Positions 19,198-63,756 are shown, numbered from the whole stretch's first letter. The stretch is DNA of 63,756 nucleotides, filler included, from Folioceros fuciformis (GCA_049999805.1; 20 parts of 20 records of this genome joined end to end with filler, not necessarily neighbours in it), one strand, 5' to 3'. Made by a program: numbers and translations. Notes: generated by a model not told the origin, from the letters alone.

Positions 19198-22100
19198 TAT
19201 TAGAAAAGCTAGAGCCATTATGTCAAGTTAAGAATAAACGGTTTAGGTAGTTTTGCATTTCCAGTTTAGATGGTTAGGTAGACAGTTTAATAACCGTTCA
19301 ACATTTTGTATAAGACAGTTCGTTTTCCAGTAATCTATAACCTTTTTTGCTTGGCACTCGTGAGAACGTCTCAACAATGGCTCCCAAGAACACTTGTCGC
19401 CTTAGCCTGCTTACACTTTGATCCTAGCATAGCTATTCTCATAGCTTTTATGGTATCAGAGCCGGCTCAATGAGTTCTTGGCGAATGCGATGGGTGTCAA
19501 CGCATCCGATTCACCTTAAAGACATCACCTCACGATCATGATGCCAAGACGAAGATTTCCTACACTAGACACACAATCTTCCTTGACACGTCCATCTTCA
19601 ACTTGTTTGGACTAGGTTCTTTGTTCCTTTTGCAAATCTCTAGAGAAGAGGGTGACTTCGCCAACTCCCCGGAGTTATTCTGCACATCTTCCGTCGCCAA
19701 CACATGAATGCCAACACTGACATTCCGCCACAGCGTCCGTTCTTCACTGTGTGATCGGGAGAGGTTTACATTCGAAGAAATCCTCAACTCCAAGATGTTC
19801 GAACGAAGATAAAATTGCATCTCTTCACAGAGAGCTCTACACCCTACACATGCATGTAAGGGAGCAGGATGCATTCATCGAAAGGATATTTGAAAGCATC
19901 AAGGTTCTCCACTTGTCTTGTGTAGAACGTTTTAAGACAAATATCAAATCTGCTAGTCCTTCTCGAGCCAGAACACACATGCCTAGCACCATGTTCTAGT
20001 TCTTCCTTTGTTTATGACAGATAGCTTAGACTCTGAAGATGAAATTGAATTCAGGGACAAGGACAGGTTTAATGGCACAGACTACAACATTTGGGCTATG
20101 AGACTCACCCAAATCTTTGAGGAGAATGAGCTGCTGTCCATCGTGGATGGCACAAAACCTAAGGTGATGACACTTGCTAGAATGGCTGAAGAAATCCTAG
20201 CCGGGGAGCGTAAGGATAGACGTGCACGTTCCATACTCATTGCTGCCTTAGATAGAAATGTCATGCCACACACAATAGATGTGAAGACATCGGCATATGT
20301 GTGGAAAGTTTTTTAGTCAATATATTAGGATAAGAGTTCAGCGTCCCTTGTGCATGCGCACAGAGACTTTTTCAATTTGAGAATGCGGGACAATGAGCCT
20401 GCCGAGGCTTACATCAACAAGTTTAGGACTCTTCGTGCTAATCTTGTGTATTGTGGCACAATGCTGACGGAAGTACAAGCAGCGATAAGCATCTTGGCTT
20501 CACTTCCAGAGAGTTATCAGCACTTTGTTGGCAGTCAAAATGCCACAATACATGCAGCATTTGAGGCAGCAACATCTGGTCAGCCACCAAAGTAACTCTC
20601 GAGGAAGTAATTGGTGCCCTTATAATATATGAAGAGCGCACAAGGAGCTTTCACAAGAATAAGAATTTTACTTCCAACAACACAAGAGTACTCTTCACAT
20701 CAAGAGGATTAGGTGGCTTTTGTGGGCGTGGTTCCTACACAAACTCATAGCGTGATTTGACCACTAAGAAGACCTTTGTTTGCAACTGGTGCAAAATTCC
20801 TGGACATTATGAACGTGATTGCCGCAAGAAGAAGGGAGGTGAACCCAGACGTGATCATCCTCTAGACAGCAATATCACTACCGGCAAGGCTAAGCAGCCC
20901 ACCATCCTGGCAGTTTGTTTGTGATCCACACAAGTACAATCTGATACACGATTTCTTGATTCTGGAGCCACTAGTCATATTTGCTTCCACAGGCGTGCTT
21001 TCTCTTCTTTCACTCCAGCTGTAGATTCAAAACATTTTGTCTTATTAGGAGACGATGGTGGACTTTCCATCAAAGGCTCAAGCTCAGTCATTATTTCCTT
21101 GCCTAATTCTTCTAGACTAACACTCACAAATGTTCTTTATGTCCCTTCAATGACCAAGAAGTTGATGTTTGTTCTAAAGTTGTCACAAGAACATTATTGC
21201 CAAGGGTGCTTTGATCAGCAAGGGTGCTATGTCACAAGTACCAAGTTAGGGCATGATCTTTTCTCAGGCTCACCTTTTCATGACTTGTACCTTCTAAATG
21301 TCAAAAATGTGATCAGTGCCATTCAATCAGTTCATTCCACAAAAGTATCATCCACACAATTGTGGCACTGTCATCTTAGACATGTTAACTTTCAATGTCT
21401 CAGTTCCCTTGTCAAAGGTGAGAGTTATAGAGAGCCTTTGGAATTTTCTTTTGACATGAATGCCTTTTGTGAAGCCTGTTAGTTGAGTAAAGCTCATTTG
21501 CTGCCTTTCAAGGATGTGGCCCTTAGCCGTGCTGATAGCTTACTTCACATTGTGCACAATAACATATGTGGCCCCATGTCTACCAGCTCCTTTGGATGAG
21601 CAGACTATTTCCTAATCTTCATTGATGAATGGAGCAGATATTGTGTGGTTTACTTACTTTGACACAAGAGTGAGACTTTTGACTACTTCAAGTCTTATGT
21701 TTGCTATGCTCAATGCCAGACTACAAGTGAGGTCCGAATTTTGCAAATAGAAAATGGTGGTGAGTACACCAGTCATGCATTCACATCATTCTATGCACAG
21801 GAAGGGATCCTTCATCAGTTGACAGTCCCCTACACTCCAAAACAAAATGCCTTCTCAGAACGCAAAAACAGAACTTTACAAGAAGCTACTTTGGCTTCGC
21901 TATCTTTTGCTGGATTAACCCGTGGATATTGGGCCGAAGCTTTGATGGCCGTCAACTATGTGCAGAATTGATTGCCAACAAAGGAGCTTGGTCCCATAAC
22001 CCCATATGAGAGATGGACGGGCAAGAAGCCCTGAGTTCATCATCTATGAATGTTTGGTGCTCCTGCGTATGCGCTTGTACCTCCATCATTGCGTTCTAAG

Positions 22101-25100
22101 TTAGATCCTAAGGCATCGAGATATGTTTTTGTCGGCTACTTAGAAGAAGTGAAGGGTTACAAGTTGTTCAATCCTGGCACTCATCAACTTACCATATCTC
22201 GGAGTGTGGTTTTTCATGAAGCAGCTCTTCTTCGCCGTCACACTGCAACCTTGCTTTTGGATGCTACTCTTGTTCCTTCCTCTATTCACGACATCGAAGA
22301 TTTAGCACTTACAGATACTGATGAGATTAGTTTCTTTGACGATGAGGATGCTTCTCCTTCTTAGGAGCCAACAGGAATAGTTTCCACTTCTGATTATCAA
22401 GATGGTGAGGATGATAAGGTTTTGGATGTAATGCATCCTTCAACACCTTTGTTATCACTAGCAGGGCCTTGTGATGCAAGAGATTCTTCAGCTATGTCTA
22501 ACACAGATGTTTCTTCAGCTGAGCCTATTACCACACCTGTTGTAGAGAGTGACATTGGTGAGATAACTTCACCACCTTGTTGGTCAACCCGAATTCGTCG
22601 ACCTATGCATGAGTGGAAGGAGCCTCCCTATTCTGCACAAACAGNNNNNNNNNNNNNNNNNNNNNNNNNNNNNNNNNNNNNNNNNNNNNNNNNNNNNNNN
22701 NNNNNNNNNNNNNNNNNNNNNNNNNNNNNNNNNNNNNNNNNNNNGATCTGTAGGTCGGTACAAAGCTCGTCTAGTGGCCAAGGGCATAGTCAAATCCTAG
22801 GTCTTGACTACAATGAAACATTCGCTCCTATTGTCAAGTCTACTTCTGTCCGCATTCTGTTAGCCCTTGCACTTCATTACAATCTTCTCGTGCACCAACT
22901 GGACGTTAAAACAGCCTTTCTCAATGGCTTGTTGGAGGAAGACATACACATGACTCAGCTTGAAGGTTTCATCATCGACAAAGACAAAGTTTGCAAGCTT
23001 CTCAAAACCCTGTAAGGGCTCAAGTAGGCTTCACGAGCCTGGCATGAAGTTTTTCATAAGCTCTTGATGGAGGTTGGTTTCACTTGCCTGGATGCCAACA
23101 TTAGTGGCTACATCCTTTGGAATGGAGAAGACTTTTTTATTCTTATTTTTTATGTCGATGACAACTTCCTCTTCAGTAACTCTGCCACTCTTATGGCCAG
23201 AATCAAGTCAATCCTACTTTCTAAGTTTGACATGACTGACCTTGGTGAACTTACCTTCTCCCTTGGTGTCCAGTTTCATCTCAATTCGTCTGCAGGCAGC
23301 ATTGACATACATTGGGATCACTTTGTGCGATAGCTTCTCCAACATTTCAACATGCTTGATGCTAAACCAGTGGCAACTCCTATGTCTCTAGGTGAAAAGC
23401 TGTTAGTAGAACAGTGTCCCACCATTGATGAGAAGATAAAGGTCATGGCCCACATTCCCTACCGACAAGCTGTTGGCTCTTTGATCTACCTTTTTGGTTG
23501 GACTCGAATGGACATCACTCGTGCAGTGGGAGTTGTGAGTAAGTTCTTAGAGAGTATTGAGGCCCGTCTCATTGGACTACTGTCAAACGCATTTTTTGAT
23601 ATTTAAAAGGCACACCTCGCCTTGGCTTGCGTTTCTCCAAGTCCCACAATGGATTGGACCTTTCAGCTTATTGCGATGCGGATTGGGTGGGGGATCTTGA
23701 TACACGACAAAGCGTAGCTGCCTATTGCACTTTCATAGGCACATTAGCTGTTTACTGGTCCAGCAAGAAACTTTCCACCATATTTCTTTCTTCAACGGAA
23801 GCCGAGTGTGCAGCTATGACCCAAGCTTCCAAGGAGATCATATGGATACAAAGCTTCTCAATGGACTTCAGCAACCCCAGACAGCTCCTACTCCATTATA
23901 CTGTGACAATCAATTCGCCATCGCACTCTCAAGAAATCCAGTTTTCCATGCGAGGTCCAAGCACATCCAGATCAACCACGATTTCATTCATCAAGCAGCA
24001 GATTCAAGAGAGGTAACAATGTCATATGTTCCTACTACAGACAATGTTTCGGACCTTCTCACAAAGGCCCTGTCGAAACCACTACATGAAAAACATACTG
24101 CTTCTGCTGGTATTTGTGAGATTCATGTCGCTAACACTAAGGGCACTGCCCATTAGCTAGACTAGTGTTGCTAATCATCTAGTGGGAGCTTGTTTTGTTT
24201 CTTGAGTGTCTTCACCAGATCCTTTCTAGCTTCACCTGTTTTGGCAAACTCTTATGTCAAAGCTAGAAACCCACAGAGATGATAAGTTATTTGGCACCAC
24301 AACTCATCATCTGCTAATACTTGAACACATGTCGCTTACGTTTCTTTATTACTTGTCTTCTTCATGCTCTAAACAAACCTGGCAGGCTTGTATCCCCACT
24401 CTTTCTCCATGTATGTCTCGTCGTCAGAATCCACTGGAAGGGGGACCTTCATGTAGGCCTGCATTTCTTCAGGATTAGGCATTAGAGCTACCCATGCTAT
24501 GCCTGCCTTGCCCTTCTCTTCAGTCTCCTTGCAGGTCATCTTGTGGAAGTTGGCTGCTGGAGCTGCGCACACTTTTCCAGGGACGCCCTTATCGTCAAAG
24601 TTCTGGTCTCTTCTCGCCATCTTTCTTTTTGAGCTATCTAAAGGAAGTGGAGCACTAGCTAGAGACTCGAAGGAGATTATGTTAGAATCAAGGCAGTGCA
24701 TTGCATGCAAACATGACTGTCTTTTAGAGAACTTCCTAACAGGAATCCATATCCTATCACAACCTAGACACTTCAAGCCTTGTGTAACATCATCCATGGT
24801 TGATCACACAAGTCGACAACAAGCACACCTGCCAAAAGAAGAAGAAGAAGATATTGATCTACATAAGAAAGCAAGACACAAGGCTGTGAACACCAAGACA
24901 TTAGCTTTAGAGGACTCAAGACTGTCATAGCTCTATTTATAGCGAGCGTTTGAGAGTAATTGTGGAGAGTAACTCAGACATGAGTGGGAGTGTCACGATA
25001 TGCATGCAACCGTGCATCCGTCATCAGTACTTTTACAGGCTTTAATTTCCTCAGAATTGAAACATGCTTCAACTAAGTCGGAGTATTAGAAAAGCCAGAG

Positions 25101-25324
25101 CCGTTATGTCAAGTTAAGAATACACGGTTTAGGTAGTTTTGCATTTCCAGTTTAGACGGTTTAATAAGCGTTCAACATTTTTTATAAGACAGTTTGTTTT
25201 CCAGTAATCTATAACCTTTTTTGCTTGACACTCGTGAGGACGTTTCAACAATGGCTTCCAAGAACACTCGTTGCCTTAGCCTTCTCACACTTTGATCCTA
25301 GCATAGCTTTTCTCATAGCTTTTA
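19198..25324 (+). mobile_element. Copia A, full-length but decayed: LTRs 19198-19450 and 25084-25324, TSD AGTCA, PBS 19451-19462, gag-pol about 20014-24156
   Basis: Matching LTRs (12-bp indel); tRNA-iMet PBS; gag DRFNG, CNWCKIPGHYERDC knuckle, LDSGATSH protease, integrase, RT (QLDVKTAFLNG, YVDD), RNase H (DADW). Confidence 0.95.
24171..24797 (-). CDS. Antisense accessory ORF in Copia A 3' region (142 aa open; possible second exon 24171-24235)
   Basis: TATAAATA at 24934-24941 (minus), caaccATGg start, N-terminal CxxC...CxxxxHC; candidate intron 24236-24352. Confidence 0.55.
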
Positions 25325-27748
25325 AGTCATGCTAACAGGTTTCACTCCTAGCAACTTTACGGGCTTGATATGCTTCTGCTGCACAGGAACATTATACACT
25401 TGTTCTTTCCAGAACGGGAAGTTAGTACCATCTAACTTCTCGATATTGAACATGAAGTTTTCTGAGGACGTCATGATTTAAAATTGATGCAAATCAAGCG
25501 AAGGGCTAGTTAGAAACTATCGAAATGTAATGTAGATTTTGATAGTTACCCTCACACCTCCTTGTTCTGAATTGGCTATCACAACTTGTAGACCCCGGTC
25601 ACTCGCGACTACAGTGTTCCGTCGTCCGATCGAGATCCCGATGCCTTGCGGCTGGGATCAGTTTGGCACCCGCGTCCGTGCCGCTTCGGCGCCCACTCTT
25701 TGGAGCCCACGCTCCAGCGTCCGCGGCATCCTCGTCCAGCGGCACCCCGCGACCTCGCCGCACCCCGGCACCCACGGCCGATAGCTAGGGGGCTTGCGTC
25801 AGGCGGCGCCCGCGAGCCTGGTGCTTAACGCCTGCACCCGTGCCTTGCTCGCCGGGCACATAGGGCCTTGCACCCCCTCAGCGGGGCCTAGTGGCCCACA
25901 CGACCCGGCGGCCGGGGCAAGCAGCCCGCGCGGCCCGGAGGTCGGGGTTGGCAGCTTGCACGGCCGAGCGACCCCGAGGCTGGGCGCCTGTGGCGCCCTC
26001 CTGGCACCTACGCCTGCGACGCCTGTGTGCCCGTGCCTGGCACGACCCGGTGCCTTGGCGTGACCCGACGCTCAAGCGCCTTGCGTCTGTCCTCCCGCAA
26101 CCTAGGCGCCCCGCGCCCCGTGGCCTAGTGTCGCTCCCACTTCTAGCTCCCGCTCTTGCTCCGCGCTATCTTGAGCTCCTAGCTCCTGCTGCCTAGCTCG
26201 CGCTCTTGCTCCGCACTGTCTTACATGGCGGGGTTGAAGACCCCTGCACCTCGGGATGCTGCATAAGGACCCCTGATGCCGAATGTGTCTTCACTCACTC
26301 CGGTGCACTATTCACAGGCTTGCGCACCTTGTCCGCAGCACCTAGAGCCATCACCCTCTTGCTCCACAATCCATGCTCTGATACCAGTTGAAGGATCGCT
26401 AGAGGAGCCACATGGTGAAGGAGGAGAGAGGAAAAAGAGAGGTCACTCTCTCACAATGTCTCTCTTGCAAGGGAACTTAAGGGGGTATTTATACCTTCTA
26501 GGAGAGCTCCCAAAGAAGCTTCACAAGAAGCGCATAGGAAGGTGCCCAAGAAGCTTCCTACATATTATCTTAAGTTAATCTAAATGAATGATACTTAACT
26601 AGACACTAATCTTAGACTAAACACAATAGTCAAAGCACATTGGGCTTTAATAACCCTACAGCCCTCACGTCCCAGAGCTGAAGGAACTTTTTGCCATGTC
26701 ATCGGGGCAGTGCCTATAGGCTCAATGCTAAGCAAATCCAGACGTGTTTGTACCTGAACCTGGACCCTTGGATAACAATGGCCGGCGACCTCATGAAGCA
26801 ATGGGAACTGGGAATCTTCCAGTTCCCCTGGGGGATCAATTCCCCGTCACTGTCCAAGAATTTGCTAAGACCATGTTGCAGTGCACCTGCGGGAAGGTGG
26901 CCTCTGCCAAGGTTTGGGCCTCTGGACAATCTAGGTGATGCACGAGATGTACAAGAGGCCAGCGGAGGAGTAGAGTGGCTCTACCTCAATTCTCAGCACA
27001 ACAAGGACATGGTGAAGGAGGTAGTGGCTGCGCTCCTACATGAGTACTTCGCCAATACCACCAACGGGTAGTTAATCCATGATATCTTGGACCCCTGGAT
27101 CAGGGGAGTGGCCTGACTCATTGTCAATTGGCTCCCTGTGACTAAGACGGACCACATCGCGGACAGAGTACTTCTCCTCCTTTATGGGCTTGCCAGGGTA
27201 CCCCAGTCGACTAGGGAAAGGTGGTGGCACATCGGATTCAATCCGATGTCAGAAAGCTCAGGCAGAGAAAACTCCTACTTCGGGGTTGTCTCCTTCCCTT
27301 TTCCATATTTAAGATCACTATAAGGTCTTGACGGATTCAGAAAAGGCGTCCCTAGCCCGACTACCTCCTGCCCCTACTCCTTTTGATGTCACTCCATCCC
27401 AAGCTCCCAGGAAGAAGACTTCAGTATCGACCACCCAGCCCAAGGCTATTACTACAGCTCCGGTACCTCTACCAATTTCGGAGCCCTCTAAAGACAGCCG
27501 CGGAGCCGCACCAACCTCACCCTCGATGGCCTCAGCTCCCAATTCCCCAACTAATCGGCCTTTGAAGCGAAAAGCAGAGGAACCCTCCGTTCAGGCGCCG
27601 CAAACCAAACATTGGACCATTTGAGCCATGTCCACAACAGGTAGATGGATTTCGCCACCCACCAACTTGGACCTGGAGGACCTCTTGGCCTGACACTAGC
27701 AACAAGACTTGCGCTAAGAACCAGAGAGGAGCAGACCGTGTTGATATT

Positions 27749-30095
27749 TGTTATCAACTGGCACATGACCTTAGGCGCAGCTGACCACAAAGCATGTAGA
27801 CTTGCATTAAGGAAAAACAAGAAAGCAAAATAAAGTATATAGTCTAGCAACCTGAAACGGTATGTAACCGCCACTAACCCTAAGTGGTAGCAATGTTTAC
27901 TTAGGTCTAAATAATACCTTTAACACTCCCACTCATTGCCAACCAGCTTAGTGAGGTTCATGCATTTACAAGTTAATCGAATTAACAACCAACTGGAACC
28001 CTAAACCCCAAGTCTACATAGGGTTTCTCAGAGCTCCTTCACTCGTGCAATTGCACCGACAGAGTCTTCAAGTACCAGGACGCTCCTTGAAGCTTGCATC
28101 TCCAACCTTAGAACCCTATAGCCAAAAGAATCAGCTAGGCGAACTGAGGTGGAGCAGGAGCGACCATAAGCGTCCCAATTCAGATCTTAGACTCAGAGAC
28201 TAGCGACTCTGAAGCAGCTCTCTTCAACCAATAGATCCAGCTCCTTGATGTGAGACACTTGGCGTCGGAGGGGAGTCAAGTTGAAGACATGGGCGCTGCT
28301 CCCACTGCCTCCAACAAGTTTTGCGAGTATCCTTTGCCAATTCTTGCTCCAAGATATCCAACTTTGGAAGAAAACTGAGCTATGTGCATCTGCCCTGAGC
28401 GTCTGCCACACTGTCCTTGGCATGGGCAAACACCCAAGTGGCTTCACATGTGCAGACGAGAGAGCCGCCGCATGAACAGATATTAGGAGGACTGGATAAA
28501 CAAGCTGGAGCAGCAAGAGAGTGAGCTCAAGAGGGAACTGGAGGAGTGAAGGATGTGTCACAACCCAACTGCTCACTCTGCTGATCAAATTCCTAAACCC
28601 GAGACTCCTGTCCTGCCTAATTTCATTTCATCTTGTGGTCCCCTTGACAGTGCTATTCTACCTCAGGGAAGAGAGACAAAGATTGTGTTGCCCACGAGAA
28701 ACAGAGGGAGAACTTTTTCCTTGCCAAGAGGCCACCCTAACAAGACGGTGAGGTTGATCTCCGACGGTGACGGTGTAAACGACCCTCTAACTCCAAAGAT
28801 GTATATATGTGCTGAGACAGGAATAGCCATGAAGAGGAAGGAGTGGTACAGGTGGGGAGGTTCTAGCGGGAACTTTATATCCTTTTATGGTAAGCAACTT
28901 CAGAACTCTAAGGCCTCCCACTCTTGTTGTGGTTTAGAGAAGGACTAAATGGCTTACTCTGAGATACTAATTGTGCGTGTGTGTCACTTGCAGTTTCCAG
29001 GGACAGACCAAATGAGGACGCAGTGATACCCTATGCAACTGAAGACAAGGACACTGAAGAGGAACCAGAACATGATTTCAACTCCAACTACCTCGGGATA
29101 CTAAAAGCAAGGGGGAAAGAAAGGAGATCGTTGTTCTTTGACGGAACAAGCTCTGGATCTGAAACTCCCTAAGAACTAAGAGCATAATTACCCTACTGGT
29201 AACACACAAGAGTCAGTCACTCCTCAAACAGACATTTCAATGCTACTAGAGCCTAAGACTCCTAGCATCTCCTTAAATAGGTTGTGCATTACCTTAGGAA
29301 GGGCTTTTGTGAGCAGGTCAGCTGCATTAGATTATGTTGGTATGTACTCAAGACAGATCTGACCTGAAGCAACTGCATCACGAATGAAGTGGTGTTGAAC
29401 TTCAATATGTTTTGTCTATGCATGAAAGACCGGGTTCTGAGCCAGGGTAAGTGCAAACTGATTGTCGCAGTAAATTAACATTAGTTGAGTCTACTCCTGT
29501 CCCACATCCTTGAGTAACCTTCTCAGCCATATGCCCTCCTTTGCAGCTTGAGTGAGAGTAGAGTATTCTGCCTATGTAGAGGATAGAGATATTGTGGATT
29601 GTTTCTTAGATGACCAGGTAACCACGCAACCAGCTAATAAGAAGACATAGGCCGACACCAACTTTCTTGTGTCATGGTCTAATGCCCAATCGGCATCACG
29701 ATAGCCAGTCAGTGTAAGAAAATCCTTGGATGACTTCTGTTTTGAGTAGTGTATCCCATGTTTACTGGTACCTTGCAGGTATCTCAAAATACGTTTTGTT
29801 GCTAACCAATGTATTTGTCCAGGGTCCTTCAAGAATTGAGAGGCCATACCTAGTGGAAGGGAGATATAAGGTCTCGTATGGTTAGAGCAAAAGATCAAGG
29901 AGCCAATAGCTTGAGAATACGGTACGCTCATCATCTGGTCTTTCTCTAAAGTAGTTTGAGGTGACTGCTCTTTCAGTAGCTTACTGCCGCCCTCCATAGG
30001 GGTTAAGGCAGGTTTAGCATCCACGAGCTTGTACTTATGCAGCATATCAAATATGTACTTTTCTTGGTGTACAACTAAAGTGCCTTGTTGAGGAT
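27749..30095 (-). mobile_element. Copia C 3' part: RT/RNase H about 29250-30095, PPT 27926-27935, 3' LTR 27749-27925
   Basis: PYSQAIGSL, KRILRYLQGT, DADWA, WSSKKQ, KHIEVQHHFIR; TGAGTGGGAG|TGTTAA...ATAACA. Confidence 0.85.
28118..29172 (+). pseudogene. Two-exon antisense accessory gene inside Copia C (exons 28118-28889 and 28994-29172; about 316 codons; six nonsense codons)
   Basis: Single frame without frameshift; GTAAGC donor 28890, TACTAAT branch 28965, TTGCAG acceptor 28993; phase-1 splice joins in frame; CICPERLPHCPWH motif and coiled-coil segment. Confidence 0.65.
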
Positions 30096-31671
30096 TGTTA
30101 GGGCATAAGCTTAACGTTGCTTAGGGTTAGGGTTATGTTATAACCAATTAGGGTTTGTATGTACAGAGGGCACTTAGTGAAGGGTTACTTAGTATATAAG
30201 AAGTAACACTTGTTCAATTTATGTAATGTATTATTCTGAATAGAAATATGCTTCTATTCCCTTATATATAAAAGTATGGATTTATGTGATCATGGTATCA
30301 GAGCACCGCTCTTGATTTCCATCTTAAGGCAATGACCAAAGTATGACGGGAAATTGAAGTATATTTATTAAAGGCTGATGTTTAGTGTTCAGGAAGAGCA
30401 ATAGGAACTTTAGCAAAATCCAGCAATAGGAACTTTAGCAAAATCCCACAATTATTCTAAATAACTGGGAGTTTCTGCTGAAGCCAAGGGTACTCTTCCT
30501 GCACACAATTGTCAGAAATAATAATAATAAAAAATGATGAGGAAATTATGACAGCAATTCCTAAATTCCTAATTCCTGGAAAATGCCTTCTCGATCTGAC
30601 AGGGTGAATAGATCTGCAAATGACAGAGACAGGCGTTAGTCTACTCCCAAAGATCTCGAGAAAGACGGCAGCCCTATCTACACCCCCACAGATCTAGGAC
30701 GAGAAGAGCATCAAGAAATTGCAGCATTATTTCTAGACAATTCTCCAAGATTACCTGAGATTCTTGGAGCATACAGAGTACTAAGTGACAGACTTGCCAG
30801 CACTAAAGAAATCCTACTAAGACTCCTTGCCAGATAGGGTTTGAATGCGGCACAGTTGTACATACAAGTCACTGATAGGATAGATTCTTTTTCAACAAAA
30901 ACCAACGGACCACTGGAAATGCTCACCCAAGAGCGCTCTCTCATTTGATGGAAGTTGTATGAAGTTTGAATCGTCGGGACACAATAATCTCTGCTGTGCA
31001 ACCTGCTATTACATTGCATTTGCCTACTCTGCTTCTTGATCTTGCGAGGCAGGACGCAGAAAAGTGATCAATTTTCTGCAATAGGAGCCAGTGGCGGCCC
31101 AGATGCCAAGCATCGTGGTCAGTGGCTGTTCGCAGGAAGAGGTGCCTCCATGCAATGCACCTTTCCTGCTCCCCTGACACTTCGCCAACATCAACTGTCA
31201 CAGAGTTGGTTAGTTAGGGTTTCTTTCAAAACTCATGAATAGAAAACTAACAACTAAAGCAACATTTCATACTCACCGTTTTGTTTTGACTTGAACAATA
31301 TCATCTAGAATGCCTGTAGGCTAGTGCCATTGTTGGCTCTTGTCCACACGCATGACAGAAACTTCTTCTACGTCTCACAAGGATGGTTATACCTTGTCCC
31401 TAAGCAGCTCTAGCTCAAAAACAGATCTTCAGGATCCCCTTGTCGATCTCCTTGCATAGCAACTTAACACACTTAGTATAGTGCCCATTTCTTTTCAAAT
31501 GATGGGAACTATTCCACCTCCTCCTCCTCCTCCTGGCTACAATAGCCCAACCTTCACATCTGAATTGAAAGAAAAAGACAGGTTCAATGGGCAGAAGTAT
31601 GAAGTCTGGAGAGTTAGAATGAAATCTAAATTGCTAGCCAGAGGTGTATGGGGCATAGTGGATGGGGCTAT
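30096..31671 (+). mobile_element. Copia D 5' part: LTR 30096-30292, PBS 30293-30304, 1.2-kb leader, gag start about 31499
   Basis: TGTTAG...GATCA then TGGTATCAGAGC; KEKDRFNGQKYEVWRVRM gag; inserted into RT of Copia C. Confidence 0.85.
30583..31242 (+). pseudogene. Decayed extra ORF (about 220 codons) between PBS and gag of Copia D
   Basis: One frame from ATG 30583 to TAG 31242, with five internal TAG/TGA/TAA and no frameshift. Confidence 0.45.
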
Positions 31672-34188: not shown

Positions 34189-34444
34189 TCAATTCGAACC
34201 TATTGATAGTTCGTGACTTGAACTTGCTGGCGCCTGTGTGACTTGAACGACACCTAGACCAGTTGTGTGCCTCGCATGTACACTCTTTCCTAATGCCTTT
34301 GTAAGCTGATCAGCAATATTTTCAATGGTGTTTACATAATTTAATTCAATAACTTTGTCCTCGACTGCCTTGCGGATAAAATGTTGTTTGACTTCTATGT
34401 GCCTCGTTCTGGAATGTGCAATAGGGTTTCTTGCAATCGCCATT
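34189..34444 (-). mobile_element. Copia RNase H C-terminal fragment
   Basis: AIARNPIAHSRTRHIEVKQHFIR...NIADQLTKAL. Confidence 0.85.
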
Positions 34445-34603
34445 TGTGGAGGCAAAACCCCGGGCACCGATTGCCAACGGGTTCCACCTTTAGTGGCCAC
34501 ACTTATCCCACTGTCGTTGAGACATTGGGTTTCGTTCCCACGAAGGAGCGATGGGGTTCCTTGCTACTGTGGATGGAGGGTCGGACTTGATCAACTCGAT
34601 GAT
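34445..34603 (+). mobile_element. TGTGGAGG-family LTR terminus inserted in Copia RNase H
   Basis: Near-identical to 31672 onward. Confidence 0.8.
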
Positions 34604-39795: not shown

Positions 39796-42632
39796 TCACG
39801 GAATGCTCTCTGCTGTGCTGCTGCAACTGTAGAGTCCGCACGGATCTGGTCACAAAGCTTTGTACTTGGAGCTGCTTCCATTTGCCAGAATACGAAACTA
39901 CCGCAGGGCGTACTAGCAGGCGGGTAACGGCTCGGTGCCAGGATATGTGTGCGAGTGACGCGGCAGCACCCGTTGCGACGGTGCCGTGTAGCAAGTTCGA
40001 GCAGGAGAGAGACGTATTGGCGGTCGACCGGTCAGTGGCCAAACAAAGTGTGTGAGGCGTCTGAGAGATCAAGCTGGTTAGGTTGAAGTCACTGGTTAGG
40101 TTGCAGTGGCGAGCAACGAAAGTGCGCGACGAACGGCGAGCTGGTGGCCAGGTTTTGGACACTTGGGCGCTGACATTCCACTTGTGCAAGGGCTGGAAGA
40201 TGCACGCGAAGGGTGGAGACAATTATTTTTTTTGAGGACGAAATGGGTTTTGCCTGGAGCCACGTTCCATAGATGCTGGACTAATGTGTGGCCCAGAAAT
40301 GGTGAGGAAGGTAGAGGCCGGGCTCCAAAATATTCGCCAAGCCGAGGGTACGGACAAAAGGGCTTGGCCGACTTGGAGCTTCCGCGGGGCAGCATTTTCC
40401 GTCGACAATTCCTTGTGCTGCTGTGTGGGTGCCGAAAGAGGGCCTGCCCCGGGGCCCGCCTTCCTCCAATCATGCTCCGCCCTGAATGAAGGAGCTCCTC
40501 CTTGGCCTTCTTCCGCGTTGCCTCTGGACCGGTCGTCTGCGTTTGCCGCGGTGCCGCTGTGTATGGGTCTCGCCGCTGCCATGGCCGCTGGACAGCTTTG
40601 ACTCGGTCGTTGCCGATGCGCGGCTCTGGGACTCGGGAACTTGCTGCGCTCCCGCTCCCGGGGCCTTAGCCTTGTTGTTGAGGCGCGGGTCCTGATCTGG
40701 ACGCCTCGGAGTGGCGCAGCAGAAAGCCCGGCCCAGCCGAGCCCAGCCGACCATGCTAGTAGCGGTCTGCGGCGTACCGAGATTTGGTTACTGATTCTGG
40801 TCACAGGGAGGCCGCAGCTACTGTACCGCGATATACATGCGGACTGGGGTGCAGGGGCGGAATTCAGATCCAGGGATTTCGCTGCGTTTGTGGATTTGTG
40901 TGTTGTGAGCGGAGAGCGAGTTGGGCGGTGCAATGGCGGTCGCTGCCGGGCTTGGTGACGGCGCGTCCACGATCGTGTTGATCGGGCTTGTGGTTGGCGC
41001 CGTGGTTGTGAGTGTCGGATTGCTGCTNNNNNNNNNNNNNNNNNNNNNNNNNNNNNNNNNNNNNNNNNNNNTTAATTAATTAANNNNNNNNNNNNNNNNN
41101 NNNNNNNNNNNNNNNNNNNNNNNNNNNATGCTGCTTAGAGCCCATCCAGCCACCCCAAGCGGGATGGGCTCATGTTGCAGACCGAGCAAGCCTAAACTGC
41201 TGCTCGGAACCCTAAATTTAAAGGGGTATCGCTAATGCTGCGTTAACGTCGTCAGCTGTAATGGAATTGCTGTGAGGTCAACCTCGGATCATAGTAATTT
41301 GGAGCATAGGGACTGAATATGTGCCTTATTTTCAGGCTGCGTCGTCAATGATTTCTTGAACATATCAATACCTTGAAGCCAAGCAGGGTGACAAATCATA
41401 AACTTGCTCTACGTCATATGGGGTTCACCTTTTTCCAAGGCCATCGTATGGATCATGAAGGCCGAAGTGCCAAAATCGACATGCAGAAACAGTTGTTCGA
41501 GGCGCTTTCTCACTGTCTTTCGCAGAGCCATTTCTTCATCTCCATTCACCTTCTGTCGGACNNNNNNNNNNNNNNNNNNNNNNNNNNNNNNNNNNNNNNN
41601 NNNNNNNNNNNNNNNNNNNNNNNNNNNNNNNNNNNNNNNNNNNNNNNNNNNNNNNNNNNNNATCTCCAATCTCCCTCGGCCAAAAATTGAACTCGCGATC
41701 GCAGCCTTAAATGCGCCCATGGCGAAGAGACCGTCACATTTGGTCGCTGCGGGTTTGTCACATGACCCTGCTGCACCCCGCTCGGCGGAAAACCTGCGGC
41801 AATGCAGCCGGATTGTCCTGTAGATATCGAGACCAGCTGCAAGAGTTGTCATGTCCTCAACTAAGAGGCCAACACTGCGCCTTGCGTCATGGAAGAGCAG
41901 ATCCGCTCNNNNNNNNNNNNNNNNNNNNNNNNNNNNNNNNNNNNNNNNNNNNNNNNNNNNNNNNNNNNNNNNNNNNNNNNNNNNNNNNNNNNNNNNNNNN
42001 NNNNNNNNATGCTGCTTAGAGCCCATCCAGCCACCCCAAGCGGGATGGGCTCATGTTGCAGACCGAGCAAGCCTAAACTGCTGCTCGGAACCCTAAATTT
42101 AAAGGGGTATCGCTAATGCTGCGTTAACGTCGTCAGCTGTAATGGAATTGCTGTGAGGTCAACCTCGGATCATAGTAATTTGGAGCATAGGGACTGAATA
42201 TGTGCCTTATTTTCAGGCTGCGTCGTCAATGATTTCTTGAACATATCAATACCTTGAAGCCAAGCAGGGTGACAAATCATAAACTTGCTCTACGTCATAT
42301 GGGGTTCACCTTTTTCCAAGGCCATCGTATGGATCATGAAGGCCGAAGTGCCAAAATCGACATGCAGAAACAGTTGTTCGAGGCGCTTTCTCACTGTCTT
42401 TCGCAGAGCCATTTCTTCATCTCCATTCACCTTCTGTCGGACNNNNNNNNNNNNNNNNNNNNNNNNNNNNNNNNNNNNNNNNNNNNTTAATTAATTAANN
42501 NNNNNNNNNNNNNNNNNNNNNNNNNNNNNNNNNNNNNNNNNNATGTTACATTACGTATAATATATATTGCAACTAAGAAGGATATGACGATAGTATACAA
42601 ATCGAACTTAATAATATGGTCAATTTTTTTTT

Positions 42633-56942: not shown

Positions 56943-58180
56943 TGACACCACAGACGCTCAGGGAATCCTGGAGACCCTTTGTGATGCTGTGGAACTGCAT
57001 GGAACCCTGGCTCTACTTTGGCACCACAGAAGATCGGGGAACCCCAGCAGACCCTTTGTGATGCTAGGGAAGCTGATGGATCCCTGGCTCCCTTGTGACA
57101 CCACAGAAAATCTGGGAACCCAGGAGACCCTTTGTGATGCTGAGTTACTGCATGGAACCCTGGCTGCACTGTGACACCCCAGAAGATCGGGGAACCCTTG
57201 AGTTTCATTGTGATTTCGTGGAACTGCATGGAACCCTTGCTCGACAGTGACACCACAGGACTCCAGGGAACCCTGGAGACCTATTGTGATGCTGTGGAAC
57301 TGCACGGAACCCTGGCTTAACTGTGACACCACAGGAGCTCAGGGAACCCTGGAGACCCATTGTGATGCTGTGGAACTGCATGGAACCCTTGCTCCACTGT
57401 GTCCCACAGAAAATCTGGCAACCCCAGCAGACCCTGTGTGACACTCGGGAACCTGATGGATTCCTGNNNNNNNNNNCCAGAAAATCTGGGAACTAAGGAG
57501 ACCCTTTGTGATGCTGTGGAACTGCATGGAACCCTGGCTCCACTGTGACACCACAGNNNNNNNNNNNNNNNNNNNNNNNNNNNNNNNNNNNNNNNNNNNN
57601 NNNNNNNNNNNNNNNNNNNNNNNNNNNNNNNNNNNNNNNNNNNNNNNNNNNNNNNNTGACACCACAGACGCTCAGGGAATCCTGGAGACCCTTTGTGATG
57701 CTGTGGAACTGCATGGAACCCTGGCTCTACTTTGGCACCACAGAAGATCGGGGAACCCCAGCAGACCCTTTGTGATGCTAGGGAAGCTGATGGATCCCTG
57801 GCTCCCTTGTGACACCACAGAAAATCTGGGAACCCAGGAGACCCTTTGTGATGCTGAGTTACTGCATGGAACCCTGGCTGCACTGTGACACCCCAGAAGA
57901 TCGGGGAACCCTTGAGTTTCATTGTGATTTCGTGGAACTGCATGGAACCCTTGCTCGACAGTGACACCACAGGACTCCAGGGAACCCTGGAGACCTATTG
58001 TGATGCTGTGGAACTGCACGGAACCCTGGCTTAACTGTGACACCACAGGAGCTCAGGGAACCCTGGAGACCCATTGTGATGCTGTGGAACTGCATGGAAC
58101 CCTTGCTCCACTGTGTCCCACAGAAAATCTGGCAACCCCAGCAGACCCTGTGTGACACTCGGGAACCTGATGGATTCCTG
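56943..58180. repeat. Satellite with 76-bp unit built from two about 38-bp TGTGA...GGAACCC subunits
   Basis: gtgacaccacagg at 57247 and 57323; whole scaffold is made of it. Confidence 0.9.
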
Positions 58181-58280
58181 NNNNNNNNNNNNNNNNNNNN
58201 NNNNNNNNNNNNNNNNNNNNNNNNTTAATTAATTAANNNNNNNNNNNNNNNNNNNNNNNNNNNNNNNNNNNNNNNNNNNN

Positions 58281-59783
58281 GTGGATCTTCCTCCAGGAAG
58301 GACTACTGTCAAATGTAAGTGGGTGCTGAAAACCAAGTTTCAAGAGGTAGAGCCCCGCATAAGACACAAAGCAAGGTTGGTGGCTAAGAGTTATAGTCAG
58401 CGAGAGGGAGTCGACTATCAGGGTGACCAGGTTTATTCACTTGTAGTCAAAGCCGCGTCTATAAGGATGCTACTGGCCCTGTGTGCTGAACTTAACCTTA
58501 CCATCTACCAATTAGATGTTTGCACAACCTTTCTGTATGGTCATTTAGAAGAAGAAATCTATATGGATCAGCTTGAGGATTACGAAGATAAGAAATATCC
58601 TCATAAGGTGTGTAAACTTCTACGTTCTATATACGGGCTTAAACAAAGCCCACGTCTTTGGTACAAGCGGATTGATACATATCTCAAGAAGATTGGCTTT
58701 GTGCAAAGTGAAGCTGACACTAATCTTTATGTACTGCGAAAAGATAGTTCGCTTGTGTTAATAGCTTTGTATGTGGATGACTTAGTCATTCCTGGTAATA
58801 ATGTAGAGTTGGTTAACCAGATCAAGACTGATCTCAGTAAAGAATTTGAGATGAAAGATCTTGGTCAAGTTAAGTATATATTAGGAATGCACGTACATAA
58901 AGATAGATCCACAGGAGCAATCTATCTTTATCAAGGGAGATATGTAGTAGGCATGCTGAAGAAGTTTAATTTGGAGAATGCTCGTGCAGCTGCGACTCCA
59001 GGTGCTATTGGTATTAAGCTGTCCTCGTCGTCATGTCCTCAGTCTGAAGAGGATAAAAAGGAAATGGAAAGTGTGCCTTACAGAATGGCAGTGAGCACTC
59101 TCATGTTCCTTAGCAACTGGACGAGACCAGACATATCTAACACTGTGAATGCAGTTGCGCAATTCTCTGAGAATCCAGGTAGAGACCACTGGGTTGCAGT
59201 TAAAAGGATAATGCGATACCTTAAGGGCACTCCTAACTTTGGTCTCTGCTACAAACCTAGCGGGAAGAAGCATTTGCAGCTCAGCTGTTATGTAGATGCA
59301 GATTGGGCTTCTGATGTTGATACCCGCAAAAGCCTTTCTGCTTATTGTTTTCTGGCTGGTTCCACAGTAATTAACTGGTCTTGCAGGAAACAAGCCTCCA
59401 TCTCTCTGTCTTCTACAGAATCAGAGTATAAGGCATTGACAGAAGCCACAAAGGAAGCTGAGTGGGAAAGGAAACTATGTGAGGATCTGGGAATGCTCCA
59501 AAAGGGCCCTACCATCCTCAATTGTGATAATATGTCAGCCATTGCTATGGTGGCTAATCCTGTTTTCCATGCTCGCACTAAGCACAACGAGATCCAACAT
59601 CATTATGTGAGGGATGCTACTGAGCGAGGTTTAGTGAAGATTCAGTATGTGTCTACAGACCTTAATGTAGCTGATGTTCTGACAAAGTCACTTCCTAAGT
59701 TTCGACACTGTTTTCATAGGGAAGGACGTGGTCTTGTAGATTGTAGTGGTTATGTAACTCAAGAGAATTTGAAGACGTGGTAA
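58281..59783 (+). CDS. Copia pol C-terminus (RT and RNase H), uninterrupted
   Basis: KCKWV, KARLVA, QLDV..FLYG, YGLKQ, LYVDDL, DADWA, ADVLTK. Confidence 0.93.
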   Translation: MDLPPGRTTVKCKWVLKTKFQEVEPRIRHKARLVAKSYSQREGVDYQGDQVYSLVVKAASIRMLLALCAELNLTIYQLDVCTTFLYGHLEEEIYMDQLEDYEDKKYPHKVCKLLRSIYGLKQSPRLWYKRIDTYLKKIGFVQSEADTNLYVLRKDSSLVLIALYVDDLVIPGNNVELVNQIKTDLSKEFEMKDLGQVKYILGMHVHKDRSTGAIYLYQGRYVVGMLKKFNLENARAAATPGAIGIKLSSSSCPQSEEDKKEMESVPYRMAVSTLMFLSNWTRPDISNTVNAVAQFSENPGRDHWVAVKRIMRYLKGTPNFGLCYKPSGKKHLQLSCYVDADWASDVDTRKSLSAYCFLAGSTVINWSCRKQASISLSSTESEYKALTEATKEAEWERKLCEDLGMLQKGPTILNCDNMSAIAMVANPVFHARTKHNEIQHHYVRDATERGLVKIQYVSTDLNVADVLTKSLPKFRHCFHREGRGLVDCSGYVTQENLKTW

Positions 59784-60220: not shown

Positions 60221-62024
60221 TTCTCCTTGCAACATTTCTTCTCACAACCCAACCTCAACTCCAAACAGTGCAGGTGGGCCGAATACCTGGCGGATTTTGA
60301 CCTTGGGATCAAGTATGTCACTGGGACTTCTAACGTGGTCGCAGATGCCTTGAGCAAGAGAGCCTGCACACTCATGACCACACAGTCCCAAACGGTGCAG
60401 TTAGTCCGGGATGGATTGCCTCAAGACCTAGAGTTGTGGCAGCTGTATCAAAATCTCTTAGCAGATGNNNNNNNNNNNNNNNNNNNNNNNNNNNNNNNNN
60501 NNNNNNNNNNNNNNNNNNNNNNNNNNNNNNNNNNNNNNNNNNNNNNNNNNNNNNNNNNNNNNNNNNNCCTCCTAGCTCACTGCTGTCAAACAGGCCATCC
60601 TCCATTATCTGCATGATTCCCCAATCTCGGGGCACTTGGGTATTGACAAAACCTATGCCAAGGTTCGGGAACATTTCCACTGGGAAGGCATGCGCTCCGA
60701 TTGCATAGAGTAGGTGCGCTCCTGTCAATCCTACCAACAAGCCAAACCTAGCCATCAGAAATACCCAGGTCTACTCCAACCCCTTCAATTCCCCAGTGGC
60801 CGTTTCCTGTCAATAGCCATGGACTTCATTACACACCTACCTCGTACACGCTCTGGTAAGGACAGCATCTGGGTGGTGACAGATAGGTTTTCCAAGGTCA
60901 GCCACTTCATTCCAGTCACCTTGACCATCACTGCCCCCAAACTGGCCACCCTTTTTGTCCGTGAAATCTTCCGATTACACGAAACACCAGAGGACATTGT
61001 GTCAGACAAGGACGCAAAATTCACCTTCGAGTTTTGGCGGAACTTCATGGACACATTAGGCATCAAACAGAACATGTCTTCAGCCTATCATCCAGAGACG
61101 GACGGCCAGACAGAGAAGCAGAATCAGGTGTTAGAAAACATGCTTCGTCATTTCACACACGAGAAGCAGACGAAGTGGGAGGAACTCCTTCCCTTATTGG
61201 AGTATGCGTACAATTCCTTGAAGCATGCAGCCATAGGGGTTACTCCCTTCAAACTCCTGTATGGTGAGACACCCCCACCTTCAGGCTTATGGCCCGACAG
61301 TCAAGACAAGTGACGAAGCGCTGTTGAAATCGCCGAGGACATCTGGCACGAGGCCAAGATGGCTCGACAAAACTCCAAGCAGCACAAGACCGGACTTGCA
61401 TCACAGCAAACCGTCACCGACACGACGTCAACTACTCCGTTGGCCAGTTTGTTTGGCTCCGAGTCAAGCCCCACAGGTATCCTGACATGATTCAGCAACA
61501 CAGCAAACTCACCTACCGCTTTGCAGGTCCTTTACGGGTGTTGAAATGCATCAACAAGGTCACGTACCAGCTTGAACTGCCTGCCGACTGGCACCTCTGC
61601 TGAACATGTGTCCCTATTGAAACTAGTGATCCACCGCTGTGCTGAACTTCCCTCATTGCCGACACCAGCTGAGTCTGTGCTACTAACCAGCCAACCCTCA
61701 GTCACCCATTCTAGGACACAGACTCCCATTCCCTCTCCGGAGGNNNNNNNNNNNNNNNNNNNNNNNNNNNNNNNNNNNNNNNNNNNNNNNNNNNNNNNNN
61801 NNNNNNNNNNNNNNNNNNNNNNNNNNNNNNNNNNNNNNNNNNNGGAACTCCTTCCCTTATTGGAGTATGCGTACAATTCCTTGAAGCACGTAGCCACAGG
61901 GGTTACTCCCTTCAAACTCCTGTATGGTGAGACACCCCCACCTTCAGGCTTATGGCCCAACAGTCAAGACAAGTGGTGAAGTGCTGTTGAAATCGCCGAG
62001 GACATCTGGCACGAGGCCAAGATG
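60221..62024 (+). mobile_element. Ty3/Gypsy pol fragment: RNase H end, integrase zinc finger and core, GPY/F
   Basis: QCRWAEYL..FD..IKY..G..NVVADALS; HDS..SGHLG..KT; MDFITHLP; DRFSK; SSAYHPETDGQTE; RFAGP. Confidence 0.9.
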
Positions 62025-62125: not shown

Positions 62126-63756
62126 TTCACAGACAGTGTAAAAGAAAAAGACAGGTTTAACGGGACTAAATATGAGGTTTGGAGGGTGAGAATGAAAACC
62201 ACCTTGCTAGCCAGAGGTGTCTGGGGAATTGTGGATGGCTCCATCCCTGAACCTGATTCCTCTAAGCCGCAGGATGAGAAGGACAAATGGGCCCATGCCA
62301 ACAGTATTTCCATGGCACTTCTGATAGGTGGTCTTGCAGAGGATATGATCCCTGCAGTAGAATATCTCACCAAAGCCAGTGAGATTTGGAATCAGCTTTC
62401 TAATCAGTATGAAGTACGCAATGTACTTACCTTGTGTGCACTTCGTCAAGAATTCTATGGGCTCAGGATGAGGGAGGGAGACAAAGTGCTTGCTTACACC
62501 AGCAAGCTCAGACATCTCCGAGCCCAACTTGCGGCTATAGGCACTGTGATGGATGAAGTAGACGTCATTGCACAGTTGCTCACCAGTTTACCTCCTAGCT
62601 ATCAGAATTTCGTGTCTGCACACAATGTGCCCATCCGTCAGGCACATGCTGCTGGTGCTGCCGGTAAAACCTCCACCCTTACCTTAGATGAGGTAATAGG
62701 GGCCCTGTTCCAGGAAGAGCAGAGCAGGCTCATGTCAGGGTCTGGTTCTAAGACCAAAGCTGACAGAGTGCTAACTGCTATCCGTGGAAGACAGGGGCAG
62801 AGGGGCAAACCTAAGACAACACCATACCGTCCAAATTCACGACAGGATGCAGGATCCTCTAATTCCAATTCAAACAAGAAAACAGGTACTTGTAATTGGT
62901 GTGGTATTCCTGGTCACTGGGCTCGTGATTGCAGAAAAAAGAAGGCTGGGGAGCCTCAAAAACAGTCTCCCAAATCTGCAGCCACTGTCACTGTTAAAGA
63001 CAAAACTGGTGATTCAAGTAAGCCAGTTGTAAAAATTCTGACAATCTGTCTATCTACATCTATTGGAGACAAGACAGCTTGGTACCTAGATTCGGGTGCC
63101 ACTTCACACATCTGTAGAGATGCATCTCTGTTCAGTTCCCTTGAACACACAACCTCTGTAGATAGGGTATATTTAGGTGACGAACAGAAGGATACAAGCT
63201 TGGAGATCCGCGGACGGGGATCTTGCACTTTTTTATTAAGTGACGGAACAACTCTTACCTTAACAGATGTATTGTTTGTACCTTATATGGCAAAGAATCT
63301 TCTTTCCCTGAGCAGGCTTTTACAACTCAAGACTTTTGAGCTCACTGCTGGGGATGACTGCTGTTGTTTCTCCAAGAAGACTTCTCCAGAAACTTGTGCC
63401 TTCAAGGCTATTCCAGAGAATGATTTGTATCGTCTGGATATGGTTTTTGTTCCTGGTCACAAGAACACAGCTTATTCAACAAGTGCTGGCAACCTAAACA
63501 CCAAGCAGCAATCTATTCTGTGGCATGCCCGTTTAGGGCACATCAACAGGAATACCATGACTTCTATGTCAAAGGCTAGCTTGTATAGGGAGCCCTTACC
63601 ATCTTGTTTGAAGGAGCTGCCACTCTGTGAGACTTGTGCCCTTGCCAAGCAAAAGGAACAACCGTTTCCTTCTATCCCTGCTCACAGAACAACTCAGCTC
63701 CTTGAGCTTGTTCACTGTGACATTTCTGGCCGTCTTCAGGTTCCATCACTTGGAGG
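62126..63756 (+). CDS. Copia gag-pol (gag, zinc knuckle, protease, integrase N-terminus), open to the window end
   Basis: KDRFNGTKYEVW, CNWCGIPGHWARDC, WYLDSGATSH, LWHARLGH, CETCALAK, LELVHCDI; no stop seen. Confidence 0.9.

Follow-up and report, generated by a model that had tools for sequence, protein, structure and literature searches.

A candidate two-exon antisense gene in an extra module between pol and the 3′ LTR of a Copia remnant from Folioceros fuciformis

In a 63,756-nt stretch of DNA from Folioceros fuciformis (hereinafter the window), we detected a frame on the strand opposite to the pol gene of a Copia retrotransposon remnant (Copia C) that runs unbroken from an ATG at 28553 to a TAA at 29172; its two exons, joined in phase across a candidate intron, give 171 codons with no internal stop. 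This core lies in a region added to the element between the pol stop and the polypurine tract. A plausible reading, which we put forward as a candidate falling a little short of an even chance, is that the added region is a real antisense two-exon gene module carried by a Copia family. The initial annotation had described here an intron-containing antisense gene of about 316 codons, read from an ATA at 28118; the intron and its open flanks, a combination unlikely by chance, survive from that description, whereas the wider frame and its ATA start find no support. The features on which the argument draws are the following, with coordinates counted from the first letter of the window.

27803-27925, minus strand: putative short 3′ LTR, recognized from a rise in read depth and a CA end near 27803; its end is uncertain
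27876-28118, both strands: four AACCCTA motifs (27876, plus; 27997, plus; 28019, minus; 28112, plus), straddling the polypurine tract/LTR junction upstream of the plus-strand frame
27917-27934, minus strand: end of the polypurine tract (27934-27926) and the first nine bases of the 3′ LTR, starting with TG (27925-27917), recognized from an exact 18-mer match
27935-29223, no strand assigned: extra module, about 1.29 kb long, that separates the pol stop from the polypurine tract, delimited by comparison of junction spacing with five Copia loci
28118-28552, plus strand: upstream part of the frame, with six stops, a Cys/His motif and a predicted helix, set apart by its stops and by indels in other copies
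28193-28627, minus strand (the Copia sense strand): mirror open frame of 144 codons, codon-aligned with the plus-strand frame, with its only Met near the middle
28553-28889, plus strand: exon 1, 112 codons and one base by translation, basic (pI 9.4)
28890-28993, plus strand: candidate intron of 104 nt, phase 1, with GTAAGC at 28890-28895, TACTAAT at 28965-28971 and TTGCAG at 28988-28993
28994-29172, plus strand: exon 2, two bases, 58 codons and TAA by translation, acidic (pI 4.55)
29224-30120, minus strand: pol remnant of Copia C (end of the reverse transcriptase and RNase H), recognized by alignment and translation

The host element appears to be a member of the Ty1/Copia superfamily, to judge from the Copia-type end of the reverse transcriptase and the RNase H that its minus strand encodes. 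Translation of the remnant gives 296 aligned codons (30120-29233) with four in-frame stops (29574, 29493, 29418 and 29334) and no frameshifts, and the pol stop codon itself is at 29226-29224. A reference within the window is a second, fuller Copia (Copia B), in which Pfam recovers Retrotran_gag_2, Pol_BBD, gag_pre-integrs, rve_3, SH3_retrovirus and RVT_2 in the Copia order; the remnant aligns with the part of Copia B that follows RVT_2 (42% identity over 73 aa, E 2e-16), and it is 34-44% identical to the pol of five metagenome loci (L001, L002, L006, L007 and L011). Pfam gave no match for the remnant itself, nor for 30100-31500. Nothing Copia-like lies upstream of about 30120, and self-comparison of the window recovered neither an LTR partner nor a 5′ LTR; accordingly, this copy of Copia C is a decayed, 5′-truncated 3′ remnant of about 2.3 kb, in which the full set of two LTRs, primer-binding site, gag, protease, integrase and target-site duplication is not present. 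At one of the four pol stops every contig from X1 and X2, two DNA runs of one sample that we compared with the window, has another letter, so that this stop is private to the copy in the window, which has thus gathered private changes in pol.

The other end of the element is marked by 18 nt at 27934-27917, a purine run followed by TGTTAAAGG. This string, which combines a polypurine tract with the beginning of an LTR that starts with TG, recurs exactly in 11 metagenome loci, and in five of these (the same five that yielded pol alignments) Copia pol stands directly before it; the other six have no pol similarity and were taken as chance matches. Two landmarks, and only these two, place the antisense frame inside a Copia, namely the pol remnant and the polypurine tract/LTR junction; the setting originally claimed for it, on the antisense strand between the end of pol and the 3′ LTR, is borne out by the pol alignment and the shared junction. 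The far end of the 3′ LTR is uncertain because the window has no 5′ LTR for comparison. Summed read depth, which is not to be equated with copy number, amounts to about 220-255 in 27785-27978 as against 15-25 in 27300-27687, and a contig identical to the window (0 differences) covers 27300-27811.

The spacing between these two landmarks sets Copia C apart from its relatives. In the five Copia-bearing loci the junction follows the last aligned pol residue at a distance of 13 nt (L001, L006 and L007), 4 nt (L002) or 58 nt (L011), whereas in the window about 1.3 kb intervene; judged by this comparison, 27935-29223 is a module added between pol and the polypurine tract. An 18-mer scan of metagenome contigs returned the junction only and no copy of the module, and DNA self-comparison together with tblastn of three translated frames found no other copy within the window. 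Contigs of X1 and X2 that cover the module include, beside those identical to the window, others with 18-38 differences per 181-292 nt (8-13%). The module is therefore repeated rather than confined to one copy, and at least two further versions of it are present in the same sample. The module has no Rfam family; separately, one chance-level lncRNA match to Rfam fell in the pol part. We also considered a nested DNA transposon with terminal repeats, an idea that found no support since the module lacks terminal inverted or direct repeats; it contains no direct repeats at all and one weak inverted pair.

Spliceosomal introns are marked by consensus strings at the donor, the branch site and the acceptor. 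The candidate intron of the module displays all three, with the branch site TACTAAT 22 nt before the acceptor, and its removal joins exon 1 to exon 2 in phase. It is 56% A+T, and its T content of 31% stands out against the 18-25% of its flanks. A second DNA version from the sample (X1 record 7, X2 record 16; 28822-29034) spans the whole intron with 22 differences from the window and no gaps.

The chief alternative, to which we accord a substantial probability only slightly below that of the gene reading, is that the module is non-coding filler (a 3′ leader-like region, or else what is left of an old insertion) in which the frame and the intron-like signals coincide by accident. What lends it weight here is the ease with which frames can be rescued: 130 GT..AG pairs are compatible with the frame, so that rescue by such a pair is as such trivial. 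A stricter scan for introns of the form GTAAG..CTRAY..TGCAG, 50-400 nt long, recovered seven candidates in the window, three of which have at least 50 open codons in phase on both sides; shuffled sequences held a mean of 0.063 introns with such flanks, and 0 of 300 reached three. The intron of the core is flanked by 113 and 58 open codons in phase, and flanks of at least 58 codons each and at least 171 together were seen in 11 of 1000 shuffled windows (about 1%), a figure that is optimistic because the pattern was set post hoc on this very case, a circumstance that again favors the non-coding reading. Even so, a consensus intron between open flanks of this length is unlikely by chance, which speaks against coincidence. 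The same holds for the position of the ATG at 28553, which follows the stop at 28547 with a single codon in between and hence stands at the very start of the open run.

The integrity of the core points in the same direction. At the stop rate of the pol remnant (4/296), 171 codons should contain about 2.3 stops; none is observed, a mild surprise (chance about 0.1). Among the indels listed (12 of 19), none falls in 28553-29172, which again goes against the non-coding reading, as compared with three in 28118-28552 and three in pol. Among the differences listed (40 of 617), three fall inside the frame, two of them synonymous and one not, which is far too few for any statement on constraint.

The features that had first drawn attention to the region are all present where they had been reported. 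The plus-strand frame over 28118-28888, antisense to Copia pol, comprises 257 codons and is interrupted by exactly six stops (TAG or TGA in every case; first bases at 28136, 28145, 28232, 28376, 28484 and 28547); removal of 28890-28993 joins it in phase to 58 codons and the TAA at 29170-29172, making 316 codons; and the Cys/His motif CICPERLPHCPWH, the intron signals, the acidic tail and the upstream AACCCTA motifs are likewise in place. In its full form, the original interpretation held that an ATG had decayed to the ATA at 28118 and that the six stops arose by C>T changes in the gene for an anti-silencing factor with a Cys/His motif and a coiled coil. We consider this version improbable. It can call on a single frame throughout with no frameshift, on the restriction of its six stops to TAG and TGA, and on the transition-rich differences among copies, which are compatible with stops that arose by C>T changes (among 378 places in X1, 66 are C>T, 89 G>A, 54 T>C and 55 A>G). 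In a bisulfite-like run, moreover, the CG and CHG sites immediately upstream seem to be protected, which makes deamination at methylated sites plausible. As for the coiled coil, AlphaFold2 predicts a helix in the corresponding place (residues 107-142), which agrees with the claim, but that place is in the stop-ridden part of the frame.

The number of stops, however, carries no signal. Within 28118-28948 the plus-strand frame has seven stops (the six and a closing TAA), the codon-aligned minus frame has six and the other four have 12-16; 936 of 5000 dinucleotide shuffles contained a frame with six or fewer stops, and 467 of 5000 contained one open for at least 132 codons. As the shuffles match it and the mirror frame also has six stops, the low stop count of the 316-codon frame is within chance, a result that tells against the full version and fits the non-coding reading. 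The lack of TAA among the six stops has a chance of about 0.11 (9 of the 29 stops in the other two plus-strand frames are TAA), which is equally little help to that version.

Other copies do not favor it either. One extra letter at 28137 is found in most of the depth (21.6 of 37.2 in X1 and 27.5 of 35.3 in X2), placing 28118 out of frame with the following sequence in those copies, and other copies have a gap of 11 letters at 28207 and a single added letter at 28501. These indels argue against both the ATA start, which the letter at 28137 uncouples from the rest, and the 316-codon extent; a leader, a promoter or decayed sequence is a likelier reading of 28118-28552 than coding sequence. Frameshifts in other copies had been named beforehand as an outcome that would speak against the gene: they were found in this upstream part, and none among the indels listed (12 of 19) lies in the core. 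All six stops are upstream of the core, before 28550, and with the core intact, decay has to be assumed for the 435 nt upstream and nowhere else. The unbroken stretch from the ATG at 28553 had been overlooked in the initial annotation.

The mirror frame on the minus strand (28627-28193) raises the converse possibility of an extra ORF in the sense orientation, a leucine-rich remnant of a SIRE-type env-like gene with a membrane-like stretch. Its 144 codons are the longest open run in the spacer and lie on the element's own strand, yet there is no Met until the middle of the frame, it has no Pfam family, it ranks below the plus-strand frame on codon usage, and the minus frames over 28550-28888 hold 3-7 stops. 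A run of this length was reached in 118 of 2000 shuffles of the spacer, which weakens the case for a sense gene and at the same time suits the non-coding reading. Being codon-aligned with the plus-strand frame, it may owe its openness to a mirror effect. Taken together, we regard a sense ORF as highly improbable.

Coding potential was assessed by scoring codon usage against a table derived from 1351 codons of Copia in the window. The plus-strand frame came out as the best of six in each segment, most clearly over 28550-28888 (-4.0 as against -18 to -44), a ranking that runs counter to the non-coding reading; the test is a weak one, with scores near zero and a held-out fragment of real RNase H scoring only +2.1.

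Searches for relatives, in contrast, support the non-coding reading, as relatives of no kind were found. Pfam recovered no families for 28118-28888 and, for exon 2, only a chance-level DUF5817_CT match (E 0.16); neither TRP28 (PF04195) nor an SMC-like domain was recovered by Pfam. A word-index protein search gave no relative among proteins of near or shorter length, and phmmer gave no matches among 1.84 billion representatives; the query in the Pfam, word-index and phmmer searches was exon 1 as a read-through with X. A protein search of metagenome loci returned 89 pattern matches, none of which was confirmed, PDB sequences yielded nothing below E 0.6, and a language-model atlas had no usable match. 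The language-model recognition of 28550-28888 was 1709, below the 2300 reached by 91 of 100 known-family proteins. Single-sequence AlphaFold2 of 28118-28888 had a mean pLDDT of 39.6, with residues 149-257 (the exon 1 core) all below 50 and the helix noted above as the only one predicted without an alignment, so that the model offers no confident fold for this region. Low recognition and the lack of a confident fold also fit the non-coding reading. The missing relatives are a greater difficulty for a captured, conserved host gene than for an orphan borne by the element, because in Gypsy antisense ORFs, too, relatives are as a rule lacking (main text of PMC7264820).

If the two-exon gene is real, its nearest counterparts are the aORF-3R of plant Ty3/Gypsy elements, ORFs that lie antisense between pol and the 3′ LTR; examples are those of maize Grande (gene23), rice RIRE2, Silene Retand and bean pvRetro13, as described in the main texts of PMC7264820, PMC11963269 and PMC4093653. 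According to the same main texts, these ORFs exceed 600 bp in Retand and span 211-939 aa in bean, a TRP28 domain (PF04195) is found in 97% of Retand clusters and some aORF-3R encode SMC; they usually lack database relatives, and an own promoter on the LTR side has been proposed for them (main text of PMC7264820). The candidate frame has the position and orientation of an aORF-3R, and it further resembles them in its long pol-to-LTR region, its lack of relatives and the LTR-side promoter proposed for it. It differs from those of the Tat/Retand elements in having a Copia host, in being shorter (171 codons), in having no Pfam domain and in being split by an intron; the word 'intron' is absent from the main texts of PMC7264820 and PMC11963269.

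Within Copia, the extra coding regions described in PMC4093653 are of another kind. In bean, 63 of 65 Copia families are without an extra ORF and the other two have sense, env-like ORFs (main text of PMC4093653); the env-like ORFs of the SIRE type (SIRE1, ToRTL1, pvRetro3 and pvRetro4) are in the sense orientation, 381-793 aa long and mutually related (same main text). Like these, the candidate would add coding sequence to a Copia between pol and the 3′ LTR, but it is antisense and unrelated to them, and thus does not show the combination of sense orientation, several hundred residues and similarity to SIRE1/ToRTL1 that marks the type. Full-text searches and the main texts we consulted yielded no antisense extra ORF in a plant Copia, nor any that bears an intron, and Neumann et al. 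2019 (PMC6317226) makes no mention of antisense or extra ORF terms. The antisense extra genes of Gypsy are an accepted but unexplained feature of some plant lineages. A real case in Copia C would occupy the same place and strand in another superfamily, with no shared domain and with an intron, and an intact Copia example would offer a compact case for what such genes do for the element.

A spliced antisense gene in a retroelement has a precedent in HTLV-1 HBZ, which is transcribed from a promoter on the 3′ LTR side and encodes a bZIP protein of known function. The candidate would resemble it as an antisense gene toward the 3′ end of a retroelement, for which a promoter of its own and splicing are here proposed; HBZ, however, belongs to an animal retrovirus, and its sequence is unrelated to that of the candidate. 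In retrotransposition reporters, an intron placed antisense to the retroelement RNA is not removed from that RNA. Antisense introns are also described for Drosophila TART (PMC1636488). Both share this logic with the module, although the former are man-made constructs and the latter belongs to the non-LTR elements; by analogy, the logic could explain why an intron might persist in the module, and only that, not that it does. Were the gene real, the survival of an antisense intron through reverse transcription would be a principle used in nature.

As to how such a module might work, we infer the following for its transcription, splicing, translation and any function. A Copia family would have gained some 1.29 kb downstream of the pol stop and ahead of the polypurine tract, carrying a small gene opposite to the genomic RNA with its start at 28553, an intron at 28890-28993, its stop at 29172 and 171 codons in all. 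Lying antisense to the genomic RNA, the intron could not be spliced from it, and would therefore be copied by reverse transcription and stay in every copy. The gene may have a promoter of its own near the polypurine tract/LTR side, where AACCCTA motifs cluster, so that its transcription would converge on pol. In the window AACCCTA occurs 20 times as against 6.6 expected (0 of 100 shuffles reached 20), and 4 of the 20 fall within 243 nt. Splicing would take place at 28889/28994, and exon 2 ends 52 nt from the convergent pol stop. The upstream 435 nt with its six stops would then be leader, promoter or decay and need not be coding; were transcription to start near the LTR, the long leader, with four in-frame ATGs upstream of 28553, would be unfavorable to translation. 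The product might be a small nuclear nucleic-acid-binding regulator serving the element, as proposed for Gypsy antisense ORFs, or else a passenger captured from the host via read-through. If the module is a passenger, or its frame a product of chance, it is an ordinary case, with the lesson that a long frame interrupted by six stops does not on its own amount to evidence.

A broader proposition is that Copia elements of this genome acquired antisense accessory genes beside the 3′ LTR, in one case or more including an intron that comes through retrotransposition by being antisense, in parallel to the aORF-3R of Gypsy Tat/Retand; we hold this to be unlikely on balance, though not far-fetched. 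Its starting point is Copia B, an unrelated Copia in the same window, whose antisense frame has no similarity to that of Copia C. The pol-to-LTR region of Copia B at 24157-25083, 927 nt long, also holds a long open antisense frame, which suggests that the habit of carrying antisense genes may be recurrent in this genome rather than a one-off.

Remnants of Copia elements crowd the window. Alongside the decayed, minus-strand Copia C remnant and a second, fuller element (Copia B), we recovered the following pieces:

58233-59783, + strand, Copia piece with an open frame of 516 codons (RVT_2, E 3.5e-63)
60714-61313, + strand, Copia piece whose frame carries an integrase core (E 2e-7, slightly under Pfam's cut-off)
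34189-34563, - strand, RNase H end of a Copia piece

Copia B retains an LTR pair, with 89% identity between the two repeats, and Pfam domains in Copia order, and has a long region (927 nt) between pol and the 3′ LTR, in which two open frames on opposite strands overlap each other:

19198-25324, + strand, Copia B
19198-19450 and 25084-25324, + strand, Copia B LTRs
24157-25083, Copia B pol-to-LTR region
24369-24803, antisense open frame, 144 codons
24457-24930, sense open frame, 157 codons

An open run of such length was seen in 10 of 2000 shuffles, and codon usage in the region favors the antisense frame (+15.3). Searches of Pfam, protein and atlas collections with the antisense frame recovered no relatives, and its comparison with the candidate antisense two-exon frame of Copia C revealed no similarity.

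The 18-nt polypurine-tract/LTR-start junction of Copia C (27917-27934) is identical in five metagenome loci with Copia pol (L001, L002, L006, L007 and L011), the Copia of L011 being of another family than those of the other four; pol identity between the window and the Copia elements with this same junction is only 34-44%. At the other end, where the remnant breaks off and a higher-depth repeat starts, there is a second cluster of AACCCTA motifs at 30122-30155 (three motifs, AACCCTAACCCTA among them). Across the window, AACCCTA occurs 20 times against 6.6 expected, an approximately threefold excess.

Two further introns with the consensus GTAAGT..CTRAY..TGCAG, both with in-phase open flanks, were detected in the window:

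62352-62430, - strand, consensus intron, flanks of 52 and 75 codons
52257-52409, - strand, consensus intron, flanks of 85 and 60 codons, within an acidic, tandemly repeated, coding-like stretch

Pfam assigned no family to either of them; they may mark exons of unannotated genes. The window, noted here over 33164-62124, is a scaffold riddled with gaps, with 76 N runs of 10, 44 or 100 letters each (5292 N in total), and 100% identical blocks recur across its gaps (e.g., 41128-41561 and 42009-42442; 56943-57466 and 57657-58180), which looks like assembly redundancy rather than biology.

One of the sequencing runs of the same sample compared with the window as contigs (X3) behaves like a bisulfite-type library: its 352 changed places include 121 C>T and 141 G>A. 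Among the X3 changes listed, 13 of the 15 minus-strand CHH cytosines at 27950-28065 are converted in all X3 contigs, with conversion at 0 of 3 CG and 0 of 3 CHG cytosines, a pattern tentatively consistent with a locus methylated at CG and CHG sites.
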